From: a virus
Lineage: Duplodnaviria > Heunggongvirae > Uroviricota > Caudoviricetes
Virus record (IMG/VR): IMGVR_UViG_2548876862_000016
Reading direction: 5' to 3' (one strand)
Length of the DNA stretch: 12,734 nt
A model generated the notes under the pieces. That model searched no databases, had not been told where the DNA came from, and worked only from the letters and a program-made list of their open reading frames with translations. Both the position numbers and the translations under genes were made by a program. Each line of letters begins with the position of its first letter. Position 1 is the stretch's first letter. Positions 1 to 11,800 of this stretch are shown here, one piece after another.

Positions 1-55
1 ATGATGCCAGTTAGCCGTTATCTCTGCATTTTCATAAACGTTGGTTTGGGAGAAG
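1..55. repeat. Left inverted repeat of the invertible tail-fibre segment (55/55 identical to the reverse complement of 1942-1996)
   Basis: Base-by-base comparison: 1-55 equals the reverse complement of 1942-1996; identity stops at position 56/1941. The repeat starts at the window edge, so its outer limit on the left cannot be seen. Confidence 0.9.
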
Positions 56-432
56 CGGCAACGAGGAACGTCGGAACGGATACCGGGCAAGTACCAGATA
101 TGAGTAGTTTTACAACGGGGTATTCTGGAGCAGCAAACTGGCCGAATAGTAAATCTGGATGGAGTAAGGGGCCGGATGGGGTAATTACACAATGGGGTAT
201 TTTCGGTTTCCCCGTTGGACAGACAGGGACGAATGTTGTTTTCCCGCTACCTTTCCCCGCGCGGGTCGAATCAATTACACTGACAATGGCAGATATCCAG
301 GAGTCTCTGCTTTCTCCAACAACCATGCCTGCTTATGGAGTTAACTCAACTGGTACTTCAAGAACGGGTTTTACAGCCCGTATGTCAGGCGTCGGTGGGT
401 TTAATCTTTGCTATATAGCGAAAGGGAGATAA
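1..432 (+). CDS. Tail-fibre C-terminal variable cassette A (receptor-binding part), probably fused in frame to a constant N-terminal part upstream of the window; 5' end likely incomplete
   Basis: Only frame 1 is open through the inverted repeat; the ORF runs to a stop at 430-432 and is followed 4 nt later by a tail-fibre assembly gene with a GGGAGA ribosome-binding site. Same strand as the tail operon. Confidence 0.65.
   Translation: MMPVSRYLCIFINVGLGEAATRNVGTDTGQVPDMSSFTTGYSGAANWPNSKSGWSKGPDGVITQWGIFGFPVGQTGTNVVFPLPFPARVESITLTMADIQESLLSPTTMPAYGVNSTGTSRTGFTARMSGVGGFNLCYIAKGR
29..54. other. hix/gix-like 26-bp invertase crossover site (left)
   Basis: TTTTCATAAACGTTGGTTTGGGAGAA; its reverse complement TTCTCCCAAACCAACGTTTATGAAAA matches the remembered hixL sequence TTCTTGAAAACCAAGGTTTTTGATAA at 20 of 26 positions, including the AAACC / central AA / GTTT core. 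Confidence 0.7.
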
Positions 433-436
433 CAGA

Positions 437-880
437 ATGAATAAAGTTAAAAGTGTTTACAGCCCGTCCGAAAATGCAATCTACAACGCAGCGCTATATG
501 AAAGTTATATCAAGGAGGGGGCATGGCCGCAGGATGGTATTGAAATCAGCGATGAGGATGCTGTCAGATTTAATGGGGGAAATAAGCCAACAGGAAAAAT
601 GCTGGGAATGGTTTCAGGGACCCTTGCATGGGTTGATGAGCCGCCGCTTTCACCAGAACAGAAAATATCAGATGCAGAAAACATGAAAGCCACATTTCGT
701 GCAAAAGCTGACAGTGAAATATCCTGGCGTCAGGATGCTGTTGATGCTGGTATCGCAACTGATGAAGAAACTTCAACTCTCACCCAATGGAAGAAATACC
801 GTGTGCTGCTGATGCGTGTTGATACGTCAACAGCACCCGATATTGAATGGCCTACGCCTCCGGCAGCTCAGGCCAGATGA
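437..880 (+). CDS. Tail-fibre assembly chaperone (Tfa, P2 G / Mu U family), partner of cassette A
   Basis: 147 aa; C-terminal motif ...RVDTSTAPDIEWPTPP typical of Tfa proteins; GGGAGA ribosome-binding site 8 nt upstream of the ATG. Confidence 0.85.
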   Translation: MNKVKSVYSPSENAIYNAALYESYIKEGAWPQDGIEISDEDAVRFNGGNKPTGKMLGMVSGTLAWVDEPPLSPEQKISDAENMKATFRAKADSEISWRQDAVDAGIATDEETSTLTQWKKYRVLLMRVDTSTAPDIEWPTPPAAQAR

Positions 881-1457
881 CATCAGGCGCGGTGCTGGTA
901 TCTGTTGCCGTCACCGCGTCAATGTAATCCAGCACGACGTTAAGTCGGGTTGTTTCTGCCGGCGTCAACTTCCGTCCGGCCTGTAATTTCAACTGAATCA
1001 GACTAATGGAAGCTATTGCAGTATCCATCAGCGACTGGCGCTGTGCTTCTGCTGCATCTACTGCGGCGCTATGCTGTGCCTCGGTATCCGTCACCCATTT
1101 CTCACCATCCCATTTATCGTATGGCGTTAACGGGGCTATAGTGGTTGTATTTTCGGGGTAATCACCCGGAGTTGTGATTTCTTTGGCGTCTCCCGTTTCG
1201 GTGTTATAGACGATTTCACCGCGATGGTCTGGCACATATTCCCATGAGTTTAAATCTGCCGAACGGCAGATTGCATAACCAGCCTTATGTATACCAGGTT
1301 CATCCAGACAGGAATATGCCGGAATACCAACACCTACAGCAAGAAATTCGGTTGATGCAGAAATATATTCCCTTGTCTCACTGTTATAGTTGTAAACGAT
1401 AATGTTTCCTTCCTGTACGGCAATAAGCTCATTGTTTAATATCGCGTTATTCATCAT
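852..1457 (-). CDS. tfaE: Tail-fibre assembly chaperone (TfaE-like), partner of cassette B
   Basis: 201 aa starting MMNNAILNNEL... with C-terminal ...LDYIDAVTATDTSTAPDVIWPELPEA; closely resembles the e14 prophage TfaE as I remember it. Its ATG overlaps the stop of the upstream cassette (ATGA). Confidence 0.8.
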   Translation of the reverse strand: MMNNAILNNELIAVQEGNIIVYNYNSETREYISASTEFLAVGVGIPAYSCLDEPGIHKAGYAICRSADLNSWEYVPDHRGEIVYNTETGDAKEITTPGDYPENTTTIAPLTPYDKWDGEKWVTDTEAQHSAAVDAAEAQRQSLMDTAIASISLIQLKLQAGRKLTPAETTRLNVVLDYIDAVTATDTSTAPDVIWPELPEA

Positions 1458-1996
1458 GCAGCTCTCACAATATAGTTAAATGCAATATTTCGCGGGCGTG
1501 TTTCATTTGTTCCGTATGCTGTTGTTCTTTGGTTGCCGACAAAATATCCATTTGGATTCGAAGATACAGAGTAATCATCAAAATCAAGTGGACTATCAGC
1601 GCCCGGAGTCAGACTGGCAATATATCCTCTACCCATAACTTCTGATGCTGGTATTTCTTTTGTACGATAATCACTGACTCTGAATATCTGCCCCTGATGA
1701 GTATGTAATTCTACCCCTCCATTCTGAATACTTAGCAGCGTACGTTCTGCATCAATGCCGCGCCCATCATCCCAGCCACGAATAAACTCACCGCGTAAAT
1801 CAGGCAGTTTATTTGTCGGATAAGCCTTTGCCAGTTTAGGATATTCAACGGCAGAAAATACTGCACCGTTGCATTTCAGCCAGCCTGTCGGCGGCGTAGC
1901 TGAAGGCCACGGAACTATCACGCCAACAGGCAACGCAGAACCTTCTCCCAAACCAACGTTTATGAAAATGCAGAGATAACGGCTAACTGGCATCAT
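1454..1996 (-). CDS. Tail-fibre C-terminal variable cassette B with phage tail-collar-like domain; silent in the present orientation
   Basis: 180 aa containing PVGVIVPWP...PTGWLKCNGAVFS...LPDLRGEFIRGWDDGRGID, the tail-collar signature. Begins with the same 18 inverted-repeat-encoded residues as cassette A; an in-frame stop (2006-2008 on the minus strand) lies just upstream. Confidence 0.8.
   Translation of the reverse strand: MMPVSRYLCIFINVGLGEGSALPVGVIVPWPSATPPTGWLKCNGAVFSAVEYPKLAKAYPTNKLPDLRGEFIRGWDDGRGIDAERTLLSIQNGGVELHTHQGQIFRVSDYRTKEIPASEVMGRGYIASLTPGADSPLDFDDYSVSSNPNGYFVGNQRTTAYGTNETRPRNIAFNYIVRAA
1942..1996. repeat. Right inverted repeat of the invertible segment
   Basis: Reverse complement is identical to 1-55. 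Confidence 0.9.
1943..1968. other. hix/gix-like 26-bp invertase crossover site (right)
   Basis: TTCTCCCAAACCAACGTTTATGAAAA; 12-bp half sites flank the central AA at 1955-1956. Confidence 0.7.
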
Positions 1997-2023
1997 CCCC
2001 GGTTTTTATTCAGGGGATTGATC

Positions 2024-2590
2024 ATGCTTATTGGCTATGTACGCGTGTCAACAAATGACCAGAACACCGATTTGCAACGTAATGCACTGAACTGCGCGGG
2101 ATGTGAGCGGATTTTTGAGGACAAAATCAGTGGCACTAAGTCCGACAGACCGGGGCTGAAAAAACTACTCAGGACACTATCGGCAGGAGACACGCTGGTT
2201 GTCTGGAAGCTGGACAGGTTGGGGCGCAGTATGCGGCATCTTGTTACGCTGATAGAAGAGTTGCGCCAGCGTGGTGTGAATTTCAGAAGCCTGACTGACA
2301 GTATTGATACCAGTACCCCAATGGGCCGTTTCTTTTTTCATGTCATGGGTGCCCTGGCTGAAATGGAACGCGAACTGATAGTTGAACGTACCAGGGCAGG
2401 GCTGGCTGCAGCTCGTGCCAAAGGCAGAGTAGGTGGACGCCGTCCTAAGTTGACCACCGAACAGTGGGCACAGATTGGGCGTTTACTCGAGGCCGGAGAA
2501 TCAAGACAGCGTATTGCACTGATTTTTGATGTAGGCGTTTCTACCATTTATAGAAAATTTCCGGCAAATAAGATCAATGAATCCCCCTGA
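2024..2590 (+). CDS. pin: Site-specific DNA invertase, serine recombinase of the Gin/Pin/Cin/Hin family
   Basis: MLIGYVRVSTNDQNTDLQRNALNCAGCE...LVVWKLDRLGRSMRHL...GRFFFHVMGALAEMERELIVERT...GRRPKL...STIYR matches the invertase family almost residue for residue, with the catalytic Ser in YVRVSTNDQ and a C-terminal helix-turn-helix. The ORF track starts at TTG 2018; ATG 2024, 7 nt after GGGG, gives the canonical MLIGY N-terminus. Confidence 0.95.
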   Translation: MLIGYVRVSTNDQNTDLQRNALNCAGCERIFEDKISGTKSDRPGLKKLLRTLSAGDTLVVWKLDRLGRSMRHLVTLIEELRQRGVNFRSLTDSIDTSTPMGRFFFHVMGALAEMERELIVERTRAGLAAARAKGRVGGRRPKLTTEQWAQIGRLLEAGESRQRIALIFDVGVSTIYRKFPANKINESP

Positions 2591-2638
2591 ATCAGCATTA
2601 TGTTGATTATCCCTGCAAGCAGACAAATACCGTTATTT

Positions 2639-2656
2639 TGTGTGAATAACGACACA
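2639..2656 (+). promoter_or_regulatory. Candidate Ogr-dependent P2 late promoter element (TGT-N12-ACA) for the FI operon
   Basis: TGTGTGAATAACGACACA, dyad centred about 85 bp upstream of the FI ATG; P2 late promoters carry this motif near -55. No strong -10 hexamer could be picked out. Confidence 0.45.
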
Positions 2657-2732
2657 ACTGCGCTTAGCTGTTTGTCAGGCACAATCACTTCAACATAGGG
2701 CGAAGCCTAATCCAATCAGGAGGTTCGCCACT

Positions 2733-3905
2733 ATGGCTCAGGATTACCACCACGGGGTGCGCGTTGTTGAAGTCAACGAAGGCACCCGATCTATTACCAC
2801 GGTGAGCACCGCCATCGTGGGTATGGTCTGCACGGGCGATGATGCCGATGCAAAAATGTTTCCTCTTAATAAACCCGTGCTGATCACTGATGTGCTGACT
2901 GCCAGCGGTAAAGCGGGTGAGTCAGGTACTCTGGCCCGTTCGCTGGATGCCATCGCTGACCAGGCAAAACCCGTGACCATTGTTGTGCGTGTGCCGCAGG
3001 GTGAAACGGAAGACGAAACCACGACCAATATCATCGGCGCAGTGACCGCTGAAGGTAAAAAAACAGGTATGAAAGCCCTGTTATCTGCCCAGTCACAGCT
3101 CGGCGTTAAACCGCGCATTCTCGGCGTGCCAGGCCACGACACCAAGGCGGTAGCTACTGAGTTGCTGAGCGTGGCGCAAAGCCTGCGTGGATTTGCTTAC
3201 CTGTCAGCGTATGGCTGCAAGACAGTGCAGGAGGCGATCACTTACCGCGAAAACTTCAGCCAGCGCGAAGGGATGCTGATCTGGCCTGACTTTACTGGCT
3301 GGGACACGGTGCTGAATGCCGAAGCAACGGCATATGCCACCGCCCGTGCGCTTGGTCTGCGCGCCAAAATTGACGAGCAGACCGGATGGCACAAAAGCCT
3401 GTCCAACGTGGGCGTGAACGGTGTCACCGGAATTTCTGCAGATGTGTTCTGGGATCTGCAGGACCCGGCAACCGATGCAGGTCTGCTGAACCAGAACGAC
3501 GTCACCACGCTTGTGCGTAAAGACGGTTTCCGCTTCTGGGGTTCCCGCTGCCTGAGTGATGACCCGCTCTTTGCCTTCGAAAACTACACCCGCACGGCGC
3601 AGGTGCTGATGGACACGATGGCAGAAGCACACATGTGGGCGGTGGATAAACCGCTTAACCCGTCGCTGGCCCGCGACATTATCGAAGGTATCCGCGCCAA
3701 AATGCGCAGCCTGGTCAGTCAGGGCTATCTCATTGGTGGTGATTGCTGGCTGGATGAGTCGGTGAACGACAAAGACACGCTGAAAGCCGGAAAACTCACC
3801 ATCGACTACGACTACACGCCAGTGCCGCCACTTGAAAACCTGATGCTGCGTCAGCGCATCACCGATCAGTACCTGGTGAATTTCGCCAGCCAGGTCAGCG
3901 CGTAA
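2733..3905 (+). CDS. FI: Contractile tail sheath protein (P2 gpFI)
   Basis: 390 aa, P2 FI-like in size and sequence; AGGAGG 9 nt upstream of the ATG; first gene of the FI-FII-E-T-U-D block. Confidence 0.95.
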
Positions 3906-3914
3906 GGGGACAAC

Positions 3915-4430
3915 ATGGCTTTACCACGCAAATTAAAACACCTGAACCTGTTTAACGACGGGAACAACTGGCAGGGGATCGTTGAGTCGCTGACGCTGCC
4001 GAAATTTACCCGCAAATATGAGAAGTATCGCGGCGGCGGAATGCCGGGTGCGGTGGATGTGGATCTGGGGCTTGATGACAGTGCGCTGGACACAGAATTT
4101 TCCATTGGTGGTACTGAATTGCTGCTGTTTAAACAGATGGGTAAAGCCACGGTGGATGGCATCCAGCTGCGCTTTACCGGCTCTATTCAGCGTGACGATA
4201 CCGGGGAAGTGCAGGCCGTGGAGCTTGTCGTGCGTGGACGTCACAAAGAAGTGGATTCCGGCGAGTGGAAGACGGGCGAAAGCAACACCACCAAAGTGAC
4301 CAGTACCAACAGCTACGCGAAGCTGACCATCAATGGTGAGGTGCTCTATGAAGTGGACCTTATCAACATGGTGGAAATTGTGGACGGTGTGGACCTGATG
4401 GAAGCGCACCGCAACGCCCTCGGCCTCTGA
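3915..4430 (+). CDS. FII: Tail tube protein (P2 gpFII)
   Basis: 171 aa, P2 FII-like; starts 9 nt after the FI stop, with a GGGGA ribosome-binding site. Confidence 0.95.
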   Translation: MALPRKLKHLNLFNDGNNWQGIVESLTLPKFTRKYEKYRGGGMPGAVDVDLGLDDSALDTEFSIGGTELLLFKQMGKATVDGIQLRFTGSIQRDDTGEVQAVELVVRGRHKEVDSGEWKTGESNTTKVTSTNSYAKLTINGEVLYEVDLINMVEIVDGVDLMEAHRNALGL

Positions 4431-4440
4431 TATATCTGAA

Positions 4441-4459
4441 CGGCGCGGGATACCGCGCC
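4441..4459 (+). other. GC-rich hairpin in the FII-E intergenic region (7-bp stem, GATA loop), no U-tract
   Basis: GGCGCGG-GATA-CCGCGCC at 4442-4459; followed by AGAACCC rather than a T-run, so not a classic intrinsic terminator. Confidence 0.4.
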
Positions 4460-4484
4460 AGAACCCAATTGACAGGACAGCAAA

Positions 4485-4787
4485 ATGAGCGATAAGCAGA
4501 CTGAAAAGACCATTCAACTGGATACCCCCATCAAGCGCGGTAAAACAGAAATCACCGAAATTGTGCTGCGTAAACCGCAGTCCGGTGCGCTGCGCGGTAC
4601 ACGCCTGCAGGCCATTATGGATATGGATGTAAACGCGATGATGACCGTGATCCCCCGCATCTCCAGTCCGGCACTGACTGCACAGGAAATTGCAGAGATG
4701 GACCCGGCAGATCTCACTGCCATGTCGGTTGAGGTTGTCACTTTTTTGTTGAAGAAGTCGGTGCTTGCCGGTTTACCGACAGCCTGA
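4485..4787 (+). CDS. E: Tail assembly chaperone (P2 gpE)
   Basis: 100-aa ORF in the P2 position between FII and T; contains the slippery heptamer near its 3' end. Confidence 0.85.
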   Translation: MSDKQTEKTIQLDTPIKRGKTEITEIVLRKPQSGALRGTRLQAIMDMDVNAMMTVIPRISSPALTAQEIAEMDPADLTAMSVEVVTFLLKKSVLAGLPTA

Positions 4788-4921
4788 CGGTTGACGATCT
4801 GGTGGCAGATATCGCCACCATTTTTCACTGGCCGCCATCCGTTACTGACGTTATGCCGCTGACCGAAGTGCTGGAATGGCGGTATAAAGCGATTCAGAGA
4901 AGCGGGGCCAACGATGAGTGA
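4485..4921 (+). CDS. E+E': Tail assembly chaperone frameshift product (P2 gpE+E'), made by a -1 ribosomal frameshift at 4742-4748
   Basis: T_TTT_TTG lies in the E frame (codons ACT TTT TTG). After a -1 slip the reading frame stays open from 4748 to a TGA at 4919-4921, giving about 145 aa (P2 E+E' is 142 aa) and overlapping the T start codon at 4914. Confidence 0.75.
4742..4748 (+). promoter_or_regulatory. Programmed -1 frameshift slippery heptamer TTTTTTG
   Basis: X_XXY_YYZ heptamer in the correct phase, at the conserved position for the tail-chaperone frameshift. Confidence 0.75.
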
Positions 4922-7900
4922 TAACAGCCTGCGTCTGCAGGTCATTCTTAATGCGGTTGACAAGCTCACCCGCCCATTTCGATCTGCGCAGGCCAGTTCA
5001 AGAGAACTGGCTGCTGCTGTCAAAAAATCCCGCGATGCAATAAAGCAGCTTGATCAGGCCGGGAGCAGTCTGGACAGCTTCCGAAAGCTGCAGGCAGAAA
5101 ATCAGAAATTAGGCGACAGGCTGAACTATGCCCGCCAGCGTGCAAATTTGCTCAGTCAGGAACTGGGAGCGATGGGGCCGCCTTCGCAACGTCAGGTTGT
5201 TGCTCTGGGCCGTCAACGGCTGGCTGTTCAGCGCCTGGAAGAACGCCAGAAAAAGCTGCAGCAGCAGACGGCGCTTGTGCGTGCTGAACTGTACCGGGCG
5301 GGAATTTCTGCGAAAGACGATGCGGGAGCAACTGCCCGTTTAGCCCGTGAAACATCACGTTATAACCAGGAACTTTCGAAACAGGAGGCGCGGCTGAAGC
5401 GACTGGGGGAAGCTCAGCGCAGGATGAATGCAGCGCGTGCCAGTTATGCCCGTTCGCTGGAGGTGCGTGATCGTATTGCAGGTGCCGGAGCCACCACCAC
5501 GGCTGCAGGGCTGGCAATGGGTGCGCCAGTGATGGCGGCAGTAAAAAGCTATACCAGCATGGAAGATGCCATGAAAGGTGTGGCAAAGCAGGTCAATGGT
5601 CTGCGTGACGATAATGGCAACCGCACTGCACGTTTTTATGAAATGCAGGATGCCATCAAGGCTGCCAGCGAACAGTTGCCGATGGAAAACGGTGCGGTGG
5701 ACTTCGCTGCACTGGTTGAAGGTGGTGCGCGCATGAACGTCGCAAACCCTGACGACAGCTGGGAAGATCAGAAACGTGACCTGCTGGCCTTCGCCAGTAC
5801 GGCAGCAAAGGCGGCAACAGCCTTTGAGCTGCCAGCGGATGAACTGTCAGAAAGTCTGGGGAAAATCGCCCAGCTCTACAAAATCCCCACCCGCAATATT
5901 GAACAGCTCGGTGATGCGCTGAACTATCTGGATGATAACGCCATGTCGAAAGGGGCAGACATCATTGATGTGATGCAACGTCTGGGCGGTGTGGCTGACC
6001 GTCTGGATTATCGTAAAGCGGCGGCGCTGGGTTCCACCTTCCTGACACTGGGCGCTGCGCCAGAGGTTGCAGCCAGTGCAGCAAACGCGATGGTGCGTGA
6101 ATTGTCCATTGCCACCATGCAAAGCAAGAGTTTCTTTGAAGGGATGAATCTGCTGAAACTCAATCCTGAAGTGATTGAAAAGCAGATGACGAAGGATGCG
6201 ATGGGAACCATCCAGCGCGTGCTGGAGAAGGTAAACGCGCTGCCGCAGGACAAGCGCCTGTCTGCCATGACTATGTTGTTTGGTAAAGAGTTTGGCGATG
6301 ACGCGGCGAAACTGGCAAACAACCTGCCGGAACTGCAGCGTCAGTTAAAACTGACAGCGGGCAATGATGCGCTCGGCTCCATGCAGAAAGAATCCGACAT
6401 TAACAAGGATTCACTTTCTGCGCAGTGGTTGCTGGTCAAAACCGGAGCGCAGAACACCTTCAGCAGCCTGGGCGAAACGCTGCGCCAGCCGCTGATGGAT
6501 ATTCTGTACACGGTGAAAAGCGTCACGGGGGCGTTGCGTCGCTGGGTGGAAGCTAACCCGGAACTGACAGGCACACTGATGAAAGCATCGGCTGTTGTGG
6601 CTGCGGTTACCGTCGGCCTCGGCACCTTAGCGGTGGCGCTGGCTGCAGTGCTGGGGCCGCTGGCAGTGATCCGTCTGGGATTCTCTGTGTTGGGTATCAA
6701 AACGTTATCTTCCGTTACGGCAGCAGTAACTCGAACCAGCAGCGCGTTGTCCTGGCTGGCTGGCGCACCACTGGCACTGCTGCGACGCGGGCTTGCTTCA
6801 TCGGGCAACGCCGCAGGTTTACTTACTGCGCCGTTGTCGTCTTTGCGCCGCACGGCATCACTGACGGGAAATGTCCTGAAAACTGTAGCAGGTGCGCCGG
6901 TTGCACTTTTGCGGTCTGGATTATCCGGTTTACGTGCTGTTGCTGTGATGTTTATGAATCCTCTGGCGGTACTGCGCGGTGGACTGGCTGCCGCAGGCAC
7001 GGTGCTGCGAGTACTGGCATCTGGTCCACTGGCGATGCTGCGCGTTGCCCTGTATGCCATATCTGGTCTGTTAGGTGCTCTGCTCAGTCCAATAGGTCTT
7101 GTGGTTACTGCACTGGCGGGCGTGGCGCTGGTTGTCTGGAAATACTGGCAACCCATCACCGCATTTCTCGGTGGCGTGGTGGAAGGATTCAAAGCGGCGG
7201 CAGGTCCCATCAGTGCAGCGTTCGAACCGCTTAAGCCCGTGTTCCAGTGGATTGGCGACAAAGTGCAGGCGCTGTGGGGCTGGTTTACTGAACTGCTGAC
7301 GCCCGTTAAGTCGACCTCTGCCGAACTGCAGAGCGCAGCGGCAATGGGGCGACGATTCGGGGAGGCACTGACAGAAGGGCTGAATATGGTCATGCATCCG
7401 CTGGACTCCCTGAAATCCGGCGTTTCCTGGTTGCTGGAGAAACTCGGCATTGTCAGTAAAGAGGCTGCAAAGGCGAAACTGCCGGAAAGCGTGACGCGTC
7501 AGCAACCTGCGACGGTGAATGCAGACGGTAAAGTGATGATGTCATCGGGTGATTTTCCGTCATGGGGATATGGCTTTGCGGGGATGTATGACAGCGGCGG
7601 CTATATCCCGCGCGGGCAGTTTGGCATCGTCGGTGAAAACGGGCCGGAAATTGTTAACGGCCCGGCAAACGTGACCAGCCGGAGAAATACAGCTGCACTG
7701 GCTGCCGTTGTCGCCGGAATGATGGGTGTTGCTGCCGCGCCAGCAGAGCTTCCACCGTTGCATCCTTTGGCGCTTCCCGCAAAAGGCGGTGAAGCGATGG
7801 TGAGTCGTGCAGCTACTGTGCCGCCCATTTACCGGATTGAAGCACCGACGCAGATCATCATCCAGACACAGCCAGGACAAAGTGCGCAGGATATTGCGCG

Positions 7901-7991
7901 GGAGGTGGCCCGCCAGCTTGATGAACGTGAACGCAGGCTGAAGGCAAAAGCCAGGAGTAACTACAGCGATCAGGGGGGATACGACGCATGA
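4914..7991 (+). CDS. T: Tail tape measure protein (P2 gpT)
   Basis: 1025 aa; coiled-coil-like N-terminal third, central hydrophobic repeat region, Gly-rich C-terminal part; lies between E/E' and U. Confidence 0.95.
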   Translation: MSDNSLRLQVILNAVDKLTRPFRSAQASSRELAAAVKKSRDAIKQLDQAGSSLDSFRKLQAENQKLGDRLNYARQRANLLSQELGAMGPPSQRQVVALGRQRLAVQRLEERQKKLQQQTALVRAELYRAGISAKDDAGATARLARETSRYNQELSKQEARLKRLGEAQRRMNAARASYARSLEVRDRIAGAGATTTAAGLAMGAPVMAAVKSYTSMEDAMKGVAKQVNGLRDDNGNRTARFYEMQDAIKAASEQLPMENGAVDFAALVEGGARMNVANPDDSWEDQKRDLLAFASTAAKAATAFELPADELSESLGKIAQLYKIPTRNIEQLGDALNYLDDNAMSKGADIIDVMQRLGGVADRLDYRKAAALGSTFLTLGAAPEVAASAANAMVRELSIATMQSKSFFEGMNLLKLNPEVIEKQMTKDAMGTIQRVLEKVNALPQDKRLSAMTMLFGKEFGDDAAKLANNLPELQRQLKLTAGNDALGSMQKESDINKDSLSAQWLLVKTGAQNTFSSLGETLRQPLMDILYTVKSVTGALRRWVEANPELTGTLMKASAVVAAVTVGLGTLAVALAAVLGPLAVIRLGFSVLGIKTLSSVTAAVTRTSSALSWLAGAPLALLRRGLASSGNAAGLLTAPLSSLRRTASLTGNVLKTVAGAPVALLRSGLSGLRAVAVMFMNPLAVLRGGLAAAGTVLRVLASGPLAMLRVALYAISGLLGALLSPIGLVVTALAGVALVVWKYWQPITAFLGGVVEGFKAAAGPISAAFEPLKPVFQWIGDKVQALWGWFTELLTPVKSTSAELQSAAAMGRRFGEALTEGLNMVMHPLDSLKSGVSWLLEKLGIVSKEAAKAKLPESVTRQQPATVNADGKVMMSSGDFPSWGYGFAGMYDSGGYIPRGQFGIVGENGPEIVNGPANVTSRRNTAALAAVVAGMMGVAAAPAELPPLHPLALPAKGGEAMVSRAATVPPIYRIEAPTQIIIQTQPGQSAQDIAREVARQLDERERRLKAKARSNYSDQGGYDA
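6765..7055 (+). repeat. Five degenerate tandem repeats (63-66 nt period) inside T, encoding a hydrophobic 21-22 aa unit (x-P-L-A/S-x-L-R-x-G-L)
   Basis: Repeat units start near 6765, 6828, 6894, 6957 and 7023: APLALLRRGL / APLSSLRRTASL / APVALLRSGL / NPLAVLRGGL / GPLAMLRVAL. Confidence 0.7.
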
Positions 7992-8473
7992 TGATGGTGC
8001 TGGGATTGTACGTGTTTATGCTGCGCACCGTGCCGTATCAGGAGCTGCAGTATCAACGCAGCTGGCGACATGCGGCAAACAGCCGGGTAAACCGACGTCC
8101 GTCCACGCAGTTTCTGGGACCGGACAACGACATGCTGACGCTTTCCGGTGTTCTTATGCCGGAGATAACAGGTGGCAGGCTGTCGTTGCTGGCACTGGAG
8201 CAGATGGCAGAACAGGGGAAAGCATGGCCCCTGATTGAAGGCAGTGGCACGATTTATGGCATGTATGTGATTGAGGGACTGAATCAGACTAAAACGGAGT
8301 TTTTCCGCGACGGTATGCCGCGCCGGATTGAGTTCACCCTGTCGCTCAAACGGGTGGATGAATCCCTGTCCGATATATTCGGTGATCTCAGTGCGCAACT
8401 GAATAATCTGCAGGACACAGCAACGTCTGCCTTAAGCGATATCAGTAAAACGGTGGGAGGGCTGCTGTCATGA
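7988..8473 (+). CDS. U: Tail protein (P2 gpU)
   Basis: 161 aa (P2 U is about 159 aa); ATGA overlap with the T stop; three consecutive ATG codons at 7988-7996. Confidence 0.9.
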   Translation: MMMVLGLYVFMLRTVPYQELQYQRSWRHAANSRVNRRPSTQFLGPDNDMLTLSGVLMPEITGGRLSLLALEQMAEQGKAWPLIEGSGTIYGMYVIEGLNQTKTEFFRDGMPRRIEFTLSLKRVDESLSDIFGDLSAQLNNLQDTATSALSDISKTVGGLLS

Positions 8474-9570
8474 ATTTCAGCTCTGAACTGCTTAACAAAG
8501 GCAACAAAACTCCCGCATTCAGCATCAGTATTGAGGGCAGGGATATCACCACTGTGCTGGATAACCGCCTGATGAGTTTGACGCTGACGGACAATCGGGG
8601 CTTTGAAGCGGACCAGCTTGATCTGGAGCTGGACGACGCCGACGGAAAAATCGTGCTGCCGCGCCGTGGTGCGGTTATTACGCTGGCGCTGGGCTGGAAG
8701 GGGCAGCCGCTTTTCCCGAAAGGGGCATTCACGGTGGACGAGATTGAACACACTGGCGCACCGGACCGCCTGACTATCCGGGCGCGAAGTGCTGATTTTC
8801 GTGAAACGCTGAATACCCGCCGTGAAAAGTCGTGGCACAAGACCACCGTCGGGGAAGTGGTGAAGGAAATAGCTGTGCGGCACAAACTGAAGATGGCATT
8901 GGGTAAAGACCTGTCAGATAAACCCGTGGAACATATAGACCAGACCAATGAGAGTGACGGCAGTTTTCTGATGCGGCTGGCGCGCCAGTACGGTGCTATT
9001 GCGTCGGTGAAAAATGGCAATCTGTTATTCATCCGGCAGGGACAGGGTAAAAGCGCCAGCGGTAAACCACTACCGGTTATCACTATCACACGTAAGGACG
9101 GCGACAGTCACCGCTTTACCCTGGCAGATCGCGGAGCCTACACGGGCGTAATTGCCAGCTGGTTGCATACCCGCGAACCCGCGAAGAATGAAAGCACCAC
9201 GGTGAAGCGTAAGCGCAGGACTAAGAAGCAGAAGAAAGAGCCGGAAGCGAAGCAGGGCGATTACCTGGTGGGTACAGATGAAAACGTGCTGGTACTTAAT
9301 CGCACCTATGCCAACCGGAGCAACGCCGAACGGGCGGCGAAAATGCAGTGGGAACGCCTGCAACGCGGCGTTGCGTCATTCTCGCTACAACTGGCAGAAG
9401 GTCGGGCAGATCTCTACACGGAAATGCCAGTGAAAGTCAGTGGCTTTAAACAGCCGATAGATGATGCGGAATGGACCATTACGACTCTGACGCATACCGT
9501 CAGCCCCGATAACGGTTTTACAACCAGTCTGGAGCTTGAAGTGAGGATTGATGATTTCGAAATGGAATGA
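8470..9570 (+). CDS. D: Tail protein / late gene D product (P2 gpD)
   Basis: 366 aa with a basic KRKRRTKKQKKEPEAK stretch; ATGA overlap with the U stop; last gene of the tail block before ogr. Confidence 0.95.
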   Translation: MNFSSELLNKGNKTPAFSISIEGRDITTVLDNRLMSLTLTDNRGFEADQLDLELDDADGKIVLPRRGAVITLALGWKGQPLFPKGAFTVDEIEHTGAPDRLTIRARSADFRETLNTRREKSWHKTTVGEVVKEIAVRHKLKMALGKDLSDKPVEHIDQTNESDGSFLMRLARQYGAIASVKNGNLLFIRQGQGKSASGKPLPVITITRKDGDSHRFTLADRGAYTGVIASWLHTREPAKNESTTVKRKRRTKKQKKEPEAKQGDYLVGTDENVLVLNRTYANRSNAERAAKMQWERLQRGVASFSLQLAEGRADLYTEMPVKVSGFKQPIDDAEWTITTLTHTVSPDNGFTTSLELEVRIDDFEME

Positions 9571-9596
9571 TTCTTCGCAATGGAGAACTTTTAAGT

Positions 9597-9626
9597 TTGC
9601 AAAATGGAATAATGCGGTGTCATTAT
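9597..9626 (+). promoter_or_regulatory. Candidate sigma70 promoter for ogr (TTGCAA, 18-bp spacer, extended -10 TGtCATTAT)
   Basis: Hexamers read directly from the D-ogr intergenic sequence; weak match, no experimental support. Confidence 0.3.
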
Positions 9627-9660
9627 TGTGAATTTAGCAAAAATGGGGAGAACTCGAAAA

Positions 9661-9879
9661 ATGATGATTTGCCCACTGTGTGGAAGTGCCGCCCATACTC
9701 GCAGCAGTTTTCAGGTATCTTCATTGACCAAAGAGCGTTACAACCAGTGCCAGAACATTAACTGCAGCCATACTTTTGTTACCCATGAAACTTTTGTTCG
9801 TTCGATTGCAACGCCAAAAGAGTCAAATCCGGTTCAGCCGCATCCAATGAAATCAGGACAGGTGGCGCTCTCTCTTTGA
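9661..9879 (+). CDS. ogr: Late transcription activator Ogr (zinc-finger, P2 Ogr / 186 B / P4 delta family)
   Basis: CPLCGSAAHTRSS...YNQCQNINCSHTF gives the Cys4 zinc-finger pattern of Ogr. The ORF track starts at GTG 9628, but ATG 9661, 10 nt after GGGGAG, gives the canonical ~72-aa protein beginning MMICPLC. Confidence 0.85.
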   Translation: MMICPLCGSAAHTRSSFQVSSLTKERYNQCQNINCSHTFVTHETFVRSIATPKESNPVQPHPMKSGQVALSL

Positions 9880-9959
9880 CGCTGCCGCCATTTTGTCGCC
9901 ATCATTAAAAAACAGTGCTTCTAACATCATGATTTTGAATGGCATAAATTTCAGGCAAC

Positions 9960-10002
9960 AAAAAACCCATCAACCTTGAACCGAAATGGCGGGGTTGATG
10001 GG
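9960..10002 (-). terminator. Minus-strand intrinsic terminator candidate (10-bp stem, then six T)
   Basis: On the minus strand: CCCATCAACC - 17-nt loop - GGTTGATGGG followed by TTTTTT; it lies 110-150 nt downstream of the ybjL stop. Confidence 0.5.
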
Positions 10003-10114
10003 CTCCACAAAATGGGGACATCAAAGAAAAGCAGTGGCACTAATTAAGACTGATGCCCTGCGGAAAAGTTCTGCGGTTGTGCAAAAAAATTTCATTTTCA
10101 GGGCAACTTCAGTT

Positions 10115-11800
10115 TTATCCTAATCTTGGCCATACCATGACGATGATTGTCCCTGCCAGCGTCAGCAGGACGTTGGCGATTGCATAGGTGCCCGCATAGC
10201 CCAGCGCCGGGATGTTACTGCGAGCTGTATCACTGATGATCTCCATTGCCGGCGCGCAGGTACGTGCGCCCATCATTGCGCCGAACAACAGCGCGCGGTT
10301 CATTCGCAATACATAAGCACCGAACAAGAAACAGATAACCACGGGCACCAGACTGACAATCAATCCGGCAATCAACATCTGACCGCCAATCGCGCCCAGG
10401 CCGTTATTAATACCGCTACCGGCGCTCAGACCAACGCCTGCCATAAACACCATCAAGCCGAACTCTTTCACCATGCTTAATGCACCCTGCGGAATGTAAC
10501 CGAAGGTCGGGTGGTTAGCACGCATAAAGCCCAGCATAATTCCGGCGAATAACAACCCGGCAGCGTTCCCCATGCCGAAACTGAATGTGCTGAACTGGAA
10601 GGTGATCATCCCGATCATCAGCCCAATAACAAAGAAGGCGCAGAATGCCAGCAGGTCAGTGACCTGGCTGTGAATCGAGATAAAGCCGATGCGATCGGCG
10701 ATGGTTTTTACGCGGCGGGCATCGCCGCTGACTTGTAAAACGTCACCTTTGTTAAGCACGACGTTGTCATCTATCGGCATCTCAATCTGGCTACGAATGA
10801 CGCGGTTAAGGAAGCAACCGTGATCGGTCAACTTCAGTTGTGCGAGACGTTTACCTACAGCGTTATGGTTTTTAACGACCACTTCTTCAGTGACGATACG
10901 CATGTCGAGAAGGTCACGATCGAAAACTTCTTTACCGTTACGGAAGCTGGGATCGAGTCGGGCATGGGCGTCGGGATAGCCTACCAACGCTATTTCATCG
11001 CCCATTTGTAGCACGGCATCACCGTCTGGATTTGCCAGAATCCCGTTACGTCGAATACGTTCAATGTAGCAGCCGGTTTGTCGATAAATACCCAGTTCAC
11101 GCAGATTTTTGCCGTCGGTCCAGGCCACCAGTTCCGGGCCGACGCGATAGGCGCGGATCACCGGTAAATAAACCTTACGGTTGGCATCAGTGTCCAGGCC
11201 ACGTTCGCGGGCGATTTGCTGGGCGCTGGTCTGTAAGTCCTGATGCTGCAATTTCGGCAAGTAACGCGCACCAACAATCAAACTCACCAGACCGATTAAA
11301 TAGGTTAAGGCATACCCGAGGCTCAGATTATCCAGTGCCAGTGAGAGCTGCCTGCTTTCCATGCCGGAATGACGCAGTGTATCGCCAGCACCGACCAGAA
11401 CCGGTGTCGACGTCATAGAACCTGCTAACATACCGGCCGTCAGGCCAATATCCCAGCCAAACAGCTTACCTAACCCTAAGGCGATCACCAGCGCACTGCC
11501 AACCATCACCAGTGCTAACATTAGGTAATTTTTCCCATCGCGAAAAAAAATGGAAAAAAAGTTCGGTCCGGCTTCGACCCCGACGCAGAAAATAAACAGC
11601 ATAAAGCCAAGATTAAGCGCATCGGTGTTAATGCTGAAATGTTGTTGGCCTAATAACAGCGATACGACTAAAACGCCAATGGAATTACCCAGTTGGATCG
11701 AACCAAGTCGTAACTTTCCGAGACATAGCCCAAGCGCGAGGACCACAAATAATAACAGAATGTAATTCCCATTTAACAATTCGGCGACGTTTATATTCAC
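10115..11800 (-). CDS. ybjL: Putative transport protein YbjL (AAE / YidE-YbjL family with two central RCK/TrkA-C domains)
   Basis: 561 aa, [36 protein letters not shown]...; matches E. coli YbjL in length and sequence as I remember it; GTG start at 11800. Confidence 0.93.

Follow-up and report, generated by a model that had tools for sequence, protein, structure and literature searches.

The stretch of DNA analysed here (the window, 12,734 nucleotides in its whole length) carries a tail-fibre switch unit in a P2-like (Peduoviridae) prophage that lies beside the host gene ybjL. The unit is placed between the tail genes H and FI, with an invertase gene between G and FI, and the overall gene order is H-G-(insert)-FI-FII-E/E'-T-U-D-ogr. 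The P2-type tail genes FI, FII, E/E', T, U, D and ogr occupy positions 2733-9880 on the + strand. Pfam matches were obtained for the sheath, tube, TAC_7, tape measure, GpU and GPD, and GpE and Ogr_Delta were recognized from gene calls. Upstream genes V, W, J and I were found in NZ_CP041678 (L001), a closed genome with a 99.9% identical prophage. The window lacks the constant part of the fibre gene, which was seen in this genome and in a draft contig (L006) whose prophage is 100% identical. On its right, the window was cut at a gene boundary, the start codon of grxA.

The invertible segment extends over positions 41-1956 (1,916 bp from core to core) and lies in the opposite orientation relative to its flanks in the 100% identical draft contig. 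It contains two pairs of genes, each composed of a variable tail-fibre C-terminus and a chaperone. Cassette A (40-432, + strand) encodes a Gp53-like_C domain (Pfam E 2e-10) with weak PDB matches to phage and pyocin fibre tips, and is followed by its Tfa chaperone (437-880, + strand; Caudo_TAP, Pfam E 1e-32). Cassette B (1454-1957, - strand, within a window ORF that spans 1454-1996) encodes a Collar domain (Pfam E 4e-16), is 57% identical to e14 StfE, and matches a phage short tail fibre (9cuy, E 2e-19), the T4 gp37 tip and gp12 in the PDB. Its chaperone (852-1457, - strand; Caudo_TAP, Pfam E 7e-31) is 84% identical to e14 TfaE by BLASTP. Cassette B is silent in the orientation of the window. 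The Pfam domains bear out the description, given in an earlier note on this DNA, of two tip and chaperone pairs, A with Tfa and B with a TfaE-like protein. The two tips were also said to be unrelated, and indeed they belong to different Pfam families and gave a BLASTP E value of 0.42 against each other. The pairs had been called divergent; they are instead convergent, and their 3' ends overlap at 852-880. The nature of the domains suggests that receptor specificity would change between the two states.

The serine DNA invertase (2024-2590, + strand, 188 aa) begins with the ATG at 2024, as annotated in NZ_CP041678, and contains Resolvase (Pfam E 1e-52) and HTH_7 (E 1e-15) domains with the catalytic residue Ser9. 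It is 87% identical to e14 PinE, 77% to P1 Cin and 74% to Mu Gin, and its alignment with the Gin structures 3UJ3/4M6F covers the full length (E 1e-92). All NCBIfam matches stayed below the cut-offs. The Fis/enhancer-dependent subclass of these enzymes is characterized by a basic patch on helix B (Hin residues 47, 48 and 51) and by Q151, R154 and L155 in helix 1 of the DBD (PMC3798978). In our alignment, Hin K47/R48/K51 correspond to K46/K47/R50 of the present protein and Hin Q151/R154/L155 to Q150/R153/L154 (Gin numbering), and H106 and M114 are wild type. The ORF is intact and both Ser9 and the Fis-contact residues are present, in agreement with the previous assignment of a Gin/Pin-family invertase just beyond the right repeat. 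A promoter scan of the + strand between 1957 and 2023 detected no sigma-70-like promoter for the invertase gene.

Two inverted 26-bp sites, each with 12-bp half-sites around an identical 2-bp core, bound the segment: TTCTCACATACC-TT-GGTTTGGGAGAA and TTTTCATAAACG-TT-GGTTTGGGAGAA. The right site is found at 1943-1968 and reads TTCTCCCAAACC-AA-CGTTTATGAAAA on the + strand, with the core AA at 1955-1956. The left site, as it appears in the window, occupies 29-54 (+ strand) and reads TTTTCATAAACG-TT-GGTTTGGGAGAA, with the crossover core TT at 41-42; in the closed genome, its outer half is TTCTCACATACC, on the fibre-gene side. The inner half-sites are identical between both sites, and the core TT/AA is as in P1 cix. 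We compared these sites with gix, cix and pix taken from the Mu, P1 and K-12 records, and the invertase-side site proved identical to e14 pixR at 26/26 positions. The reported match to hixL at 20/26 positions was reproduced for 29-54 and 1943-1968. A multi-site shufflon was considered and rejected, because no third site occurs within the window at three or fewer mismatches.

The 5' part of the invertase gene contains a putative Fis-dependent recombinational enhancer (2042-2113). By homology, this stretch corresponds in position to the annotated enhancer of P1 cin (nt 19-90), with 56/72 positions identical in P1 and 63/72 in e14. Known enhancers of this type are cis-acting and have two Fis sites about 48 bp apart. 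The candidate G-N13-C sites in the window, GTGTCAACAAATGAC (2045-2059) and GCGCGGGATGTGAGC (2094-2108), are spaced by 48-49 bp, and their scores in a simple Fis-consensus scan are weak and non-specific. Synonymous-site conservation in the putative enhancer showed no significant excess over the rest of the gene (p = 0.05 for the best window pair, 0.16-0.72 for the others). Homology to P1 cin suggests a possible enhancer function for 2042-2113.

At the left end of the window, the arms 1-55 and 1942-1996 are 100% complementary, exactly as the earlier note stated. As a biological feature, however, this perfect 55-bp repeat did not survive comparison with other genomes: 40 of its 55 bp stem from the end of the contig, and the real sites are the imperfect 26-bp ones. 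The source contig, AIBM01000029.1 (GCA_000446785.2), corresponds to the window from its second base on and is 100% identical over the 10,432 bases compared. The contig thus starts 1 nt left of the window, which led us to reject the idea that the left edge of the window is an arbitrary cut; in the contig, the inverted repeat is 56 nt long and extends to base 1. Positions 1-40 (+ strand) are a contig-end copy of the invertase-side flank, i.e., the reverse complement of 1957-1996, and lie outside the fibre gene. The ORF start 'MMPVSRYLCIFINV' (1-42) is flank sequence and not fibre sequence.

In NZ_CP041678, the match to the window begins at about 29-41 and is preceded by the fibre gene (..TTCTCACATACC-TT-GGTTTGGGAGAA) in place of window positions 1-40. 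The repeat in this genome is 27 nt at 85%, of which 15 nt are perfect; the true repeats, here as in the flipped draft contig with the identical prophage, are the imperfect 26-bp sites (22/26, with 15 bp perfect). The invertase-side flank is absent from the fibre-gene side in both of these prophages (99.9% and 100% identical, respectively). We also searched 5,426 complete E. coli genomes, in which 21 records covered at least 80% of positions 1-2700. Among the matches listed, none of these 21 records starts before position 36, no complete genome has the arrangement of the window, and matches that do start at position 1 end at about 1959 and represent flipped copies.

The junction of positions 1-40 with cassette A is a recombinant junction expected solely in flipped molecules, and L002 and L006, which are flipped, contain it. 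Junctions of both orientations are therefore combined in the contig: its left end is flipped, and the other end of the segment is unflipped. We reached this contig-end reading because the repeat extends to base 1 and because relatives have no such flank on the fibre side. Since the contig carries junctions from both orientations, the culture that was sequenced was most likely a mixture of the two. The 56-nt overlap would correspond to k-1 of a de Bruijn assembler run with k = 57.

Evidence for inversion came from the comparison of genomes. In the draft contig L006, the prophage is 100% identical and the segment is flipped, which generates an in-frame Hc-collar fusion of 516 aa (Phage_tail_fib + Collar); the Hc-B junction in this contig is the predicted recombinant sequence. 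In NZ_CP041678, the prophage is 99.9% identical and unflipped, with an in-frame Hc-Gp53-like fusion of 479 aa (Phage_tail_fib + Gp53-like_C). In the set of 5,426 complete E. coli genomes, the Hc-A junction was counted 29 times, Hc-B 346 times, B-invertase 826 times and A-invertase 30 times. Because the same prophage occurs both flipped (100%) and unflipped (99.9%) with the predicted junctions, the comparison of these near-identical copies in opposite orientations supports the view that the segment inverts. The central claim of the earlier note, an invertible two-tip fibre switch in a P2-type tail module, is upheld in that the invertase, sites, cassettes, chaperones and tail genes were all found.

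Overall, we consider it very likely that the locus is a two-state fibre inversion switch of the Pin/Gin/Cin type in a P2-like prophage by ybjL, and that the perfect 55-bp repeat is no part of its mechanism. In such a switch, the constant N-terminal two-thirds of the fibre gene H, just left of the window, would continue across the 26-bp site and into the segment (1,916 bp). One orientation would complete H with the Gp53-like tip, followed by its own chaperone; the inverted orientation would complete H with the collar-domain tip, followed by the TfaE-like chaperone. The invertase (2024-2590), encoded outside the segment, is predicted to bind both sites, cleave at the TT/AA core and exchange strands by subunit rotation. 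As judged from its family, it would act in a Fis-bound enhancer complex, with the enhancer in the first ~90 bp of the invertase gene. The expected outcome is a mixed population of virions with two receptor-binding tips.

Other explanations were weighed against this switch. The assembler may have collapsed two copies of the segment, for example in related prophages with fixed opposite orientations, in which case the chimeric contig end would be uninformative with regard to switching. In genomes that match the region, the number of matching places has a median of 2 and a maximum of 12. However, the collapse requires copies that are identical over ~1.9 kb plus 41 nt of invertase flank, whereas the e14 flank is just 87% identical across the 55 nt and only three contigs of the public collection contained the exact 143-aa ORF; we regard this explanation as improbable.

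Still less probable is a real perfect repeat of 55/56 bp, in which the fibre side would have gained the invertase-side flank and the contig would have broken at the long repeat. The deposited contig does show a perfect repeat, and repeats are places where assemblers break, but exchange at the 2-bp core leaves the outer half-sites in place. As core exchange never moves these half-sites, inversion is unable to create a perfect repeat. In addition, the 100% and 99.9% identical prophages carry TTCTCACATACC on the fibre side, the arrangement occurs in no complete genome among the matches listed, and H reading into 'MMPVSRYLCIFINV' would replace conserved fibre sequence. Finally, decay is seen in many invertible regions of prophages, and the stfE gene of K-12 e14 is a pseudogene, but a frozen relic that retained the elements and ceased to invert is the least credible alternative here, given an intact invertase ORF that keeps its catalytic and Fis-contact residues, intact sites with matching cores, near-identical copies (100%, 99.9%) in opposite orientations, and open ORFs for both fusions.

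As biology, the two-state switch is a further copy of a common E. coli P2-like prophage tail-fibre switch and nothing new; the complete genomes that carry its junction types number in the tens to hundreds. The contig itself conveys a caution: when a draft contig begins at base 1 with one arm of a perfect inverted repeat, the repeat can have arisen in the assembly of a population that is mixed in the orientation of an invertible segment. Gene callers then label the silent cassette, together with codons from the flank, as a 'phage tail protein' in its own right. The signature of a repeat reaching the first base could, in turn, help to recognize loci with active switching among draft assemblies.

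A second role for the flipped state may be envisioned by analogy. Inversion of the e14 P segment makes the StfE2 chimera, which blocks adsorption of T-even-type phages (PMC12529663). Because the collar tip in the window is 57% identical to StfE and its chaperone 84% identical to TfaE, the H-collar fusion might likewise block T-even-type adsorption, and the flipped state would then double as a phase-variable anti-phage defence. We view this as a long shot; if true, the prophage switch would benefit the host besides changing the phage host range.

The design of the locus is already known from e14, Mu, P1, EPEC P2-like prophages and Peduovirus pro483. One of the closest systems is the e14 Pin/P-segment of E. 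coli K-12 (pinE, stfP-tfaP / tfaE-stfE). The invertases are 87% identical, the invertase-side site equals pixR at 26/26 positions, and the inner half-sites and the TT core are identical; likewise, the chaperone is 84% identical to TfaE and the collar tip, of the StfE type, is 57% identical. The layout is also shared, i.e., a constant part, a site, two convergent cassette pairs, a site and the invertase. The two systems differ in that e14 is a defective lambdoid prophage, whereas the present one is an apparently complete P2-like prophage. Moreover, the Gp53-like tip of cassette A is unrelated to StfP (26% over 133 aa), and the segment measures 1,797 bp in e14 (PMC12529663) versus 1,916 bp here.

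Mu Gin and P1 Cin belong to the same invertase family (74% and 77% identity, respectively) and act on 26-bp sites that are identical to those of the window at 17/26 and 19/26 positions. Both systems combine a constant N-terminus with alternative C-termini and chaperones, and both have an enhancer at the place within the invertase gene where we located the putative one; in Mu as in the window, the distance from the crossover to the first Fis site (a candidate here) is 96.5 bp. Their segments are longer (~3 and 4.2 kb, compared with 1.9 kb), their tip domains are different, and the phage backbone is P2-type only in the present case. The core of Mu gix is TC, and gix lies in 34-bp perfect repeats. 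P1 cin, unlike the invertase gene described here, is directed towards the segment. The Hin/H segment system of Salmonella has an invertase of the same subfamily, 26-bp sites and conserved Fis-contact residues, but Hin inverts a promoter for flagellin genes rather than coding cassettes, and hin lies inside its segment.

In P2-type phages, Peduovirus pro483 has the same gene order, namely I, H, tfa, tfa', collar cassette', invertase and sheath. In the P2-like prophages of EPEC E2348/69, an invertase and inverted repeats switch tail-fibre C-termini (Goldberg et al. 2014, PMC4272514), and it is in this design, a fibre C-terminus switch in a P2-like prophage, that they resemble the present locus. 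With its two sites and two states, the present locus differs from one EPEC locus, in which three repeats give four states. Co-existing orientations in E. coli P2-like prophages have been demonstrated by paired-end sequencing and PCR, and inversion of e14 by sequencing and PCR (PMC4272514).

Four open reading frames (ORFs) between the repeat arms form two convergent pairs, identified by ORF and domain match. The plus-strand pair is cassette A, a tail-fibre tip with a Gp53-like_C domain (1-432), and its Caudo_TAP chaperone, Tfa (437-880); the minus-strand pair is cassette B, a tip with a phage tail collar domain (1454-1996), and a TfaE-like Caudo_TAP chaperone (852-1457). The earlier note had called these pairs divergent, but the strands of the ORFs (plus over 1-880, minus over 852-1996) contradict this. 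It had also described the two receptor-binding tips as unrelated, and indeed no relation was detected between them (E 0.42). Similarity of the two chaperones is confined to the C-terminal third, at 32%. The different domains of the tips and their PDB matches to fibre tips suggest that they may bind different receptors.

As had been claimed, an invertase is located just outside the right repeat; this serine recombinase carries a Resolvase and an HTH_7 domain. The gene begins with the ATG at 2024, following the annotation of a near-identical genome, and its 188-aa product is 87% identical to e14 PinE, 77% to P1 Cin and 74% to Mu Gin, and matches Gin crystal structures at E 1e-92. Ser9 is present, and position 114 is the wild-type Met, which is Val in the crystallised hyperactive Gin. 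All the residues that McLean et al. described as specific to Fis/enhancer-dependent invertases (PMC3798978) are found here. The basic helix-B patch of Hin (47/48/51) corresponds to K46, K47 and R50, and Hin Q151/R154/L155 to Q150, R153 and L154.

In the P1 record, nt 19-90 of cin are marked as the Cin enhancer, to which window 2042-2113 is homologous. It is identical to P1 at 56/72 positions and to e14 at 63/72, the rest of the gene being somewhat lower (66-75%). Candidate Fis sites GTGTCAACAAATGAC and GCGCGGGATGTGAGC are spaced by 48-49 bp; the crossover lies 96.5 bp from the first of them, a distance equal to that in Mu. Excess synonymous conservation in this stretch was not significant. By homology, 2042-2113 is a putative enhancer, and inversion may use both it and Fis.

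The recombination site on the fibre-gene side reads (outer half-core-inner half) TTCTCACATACC-TT-GGTTTGGGAGAA, and that on the invertase side TTTTCATAAACG-TT-GGTTTGGGAGAA; with the same inner halves and cores, they are 22/26 identical. The crossover dinucleotides, at window 41-42 and 1955-1956, define an invertible segment of 1,916 bp. The invertase-side site is identical to e14 pixR (26/26) and matches pixL at 21/26 positions, the P1 cix sites at 19/26 (with the TT core in common) and Mu gix at 17/26. A reported 20/26 match of a window site to hixL was reproduced against the sequence taken to be that of hixL. No third recombination site was found in the window, which rules out a shufflon and makes the locus a two-state switch.

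A prophage with 100% identity, sharing the ybjL site, occurs in GCA_051437965.1 (L006); with its invertase and tail genes as reference, the 1,916-bp segment is flipped there, and the fibre-gene junction is exactly the predicted recombinant. The reading frame is open in both fusions, the unflipped one encoding 479 aa (Phage_tail_fib and Gp53-like_C) and the flipped one 516 aa (Phage_tail_fib and Collar). Synthetic junctions of 160 nt, constructed from the closed, unflipped genome NZ_CP041678 (L001), served as queries against complete genomes, and all four were found. The unflipped junctions were present in 29 genomes (constant N-terminal part of fibre gene H joined to cassette A) and 826 genomes (cassette B-invertase), and the flipped ones in 346 (constant part-cassette B, one at 100%) and 30 (cassette A-invertase).

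The perfect 55-bp inverted repeats of the earlier note can be seen in the window, where arms 1-55 and 1942-1996 are perfectly complementary, but sequence comparison identifies their full extent as a contig-end feature: in NZ_CP041678, 99.9% identical to window 29-6700, the arms of the repeat match at 85% over 27 nt and perfectly over 15 nt. What precedes window position 41 in that genome is the tail-fibre gene (...GTAGCTGGTCTTCTCACATACC then TT GGTTTGGGAGAAG). Contig AIBM01000029.1 (GCA_000446785.2), which matches the window at 100% over the 10,432 bases compared, begins one base left of it, so in the contig the repeat is 56 nt and reaches the very first base. The invertase-adjoining flank (1957-1996) recurs as its reverse complement at window 1-40, which, with cassette A, forms the junction of the flipped-segment genomes (L002, L006); the cassette B-invertase junction is present at 1942-2023. 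A molecule that has just one invertase flank cannot hold both of these junctions. In 5,426 complete E. coli genomes, 21 records cover at least 80% of 1-2700; none of these was listed with a start before position 36, and, among the matches listed, those starting at position 1 end near 1959. We infer that both orientations were present in the DNA behind the contig, i.e., a mixed culture; at such a branch, an overlap of 56 nt would be expected from a de Bruijn assembler with k = 57.

When next to the invertase, either cassette gains 14 codons from the flank, with an ATG-ATG start (MMPVSRYLCIFINV; window 1-42, and 1955-1996 on the minus strand). The silent cassette is then annotated by pipelines as a gene of its own, as in L001, L002 and L006 ("phage tail protein", "gp53-like domain-containing protein").

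Downstream of the invertase are the P2 genes for sheath, tube, E/E', tape measure, U, D and ogr, followed by host ybjL, ybjM and grxA, the start codon of the last being the exact right edge of the window. The prophage-host junction lies at 9881-10114, between ogr (9662-9880) and ybjL (10115-11800, minus strand), and the insertion point is identical in NZ_CP041678 and L006. Within 4485-4922, gpE (4485-4787) and a short overlapping GpE-family ORF (4803-4922) form a tail chaperone pair in the usual P2 E/E+E' arrangement, which relies in P2 on a programmed frameshift. The invertase gene occupies the spot of the Z/fun insert in P2 itself. A TGT-N12-ACA dyad (TGTGTGAATAACGACACA) at 2639-2656, ~85 nt upstream of sheath gene FI, matches the motif bound by the Ogr activator at P2 late promoters, which would put the invertase gene after the H-G operon and before a P_F promoter that appears intact. 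Immediately ahead of the invertase start, a weak hairpin and T-run (AACTGGCATCATCCCCGGTT TTTATTC) at 1985-2004, whose score in the scan did not exceed chance expectation, could stop transcripts that read through from the fibre operon.

Related prophages vary in their cassettes. A prophage in NZ_CP148746.1 (L003) has identical invertase, sheath and tube proteins; at 5657-6482 of its locus, cassette A and its Tfa are replaced by another alternative tip, of 128 aa, with a chaperone, and cassette B is kept. This pairing shows modular tip exchange between otherwise identical prophages. In NZ_CP039298.1, from a pig isolate, the fibre gene by the flipped segment (locus 1893-3176) is annotated as two pseudogene fragments, an example of the constant part decaying while invertase and cassettes persist.

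In layout, the locus corresponds to the e14 P, Mu G and P1 C segments, and its gene order is that of the classified P2-type phage pro483 (Peduovirus); reading the locus as an invertase-driven tail-fibre switch was thus correct. Under the least ordinary reading, an unlikely one, the flipped fusion might be host-protective, by analogy with StfE2 of e14 (PMC12529663). Several P2-like phages of Escherichia and Klebsiella that have been sequenced carry related invertase genes. Such loci were described by Goldberg et al. in e14 and in P2-like prophages of EPEC E2348/69, with mixed orientations in clonal cultures detected by sequencing and PCR (PMC4272514), and the switch in the window is a system of this known kind.
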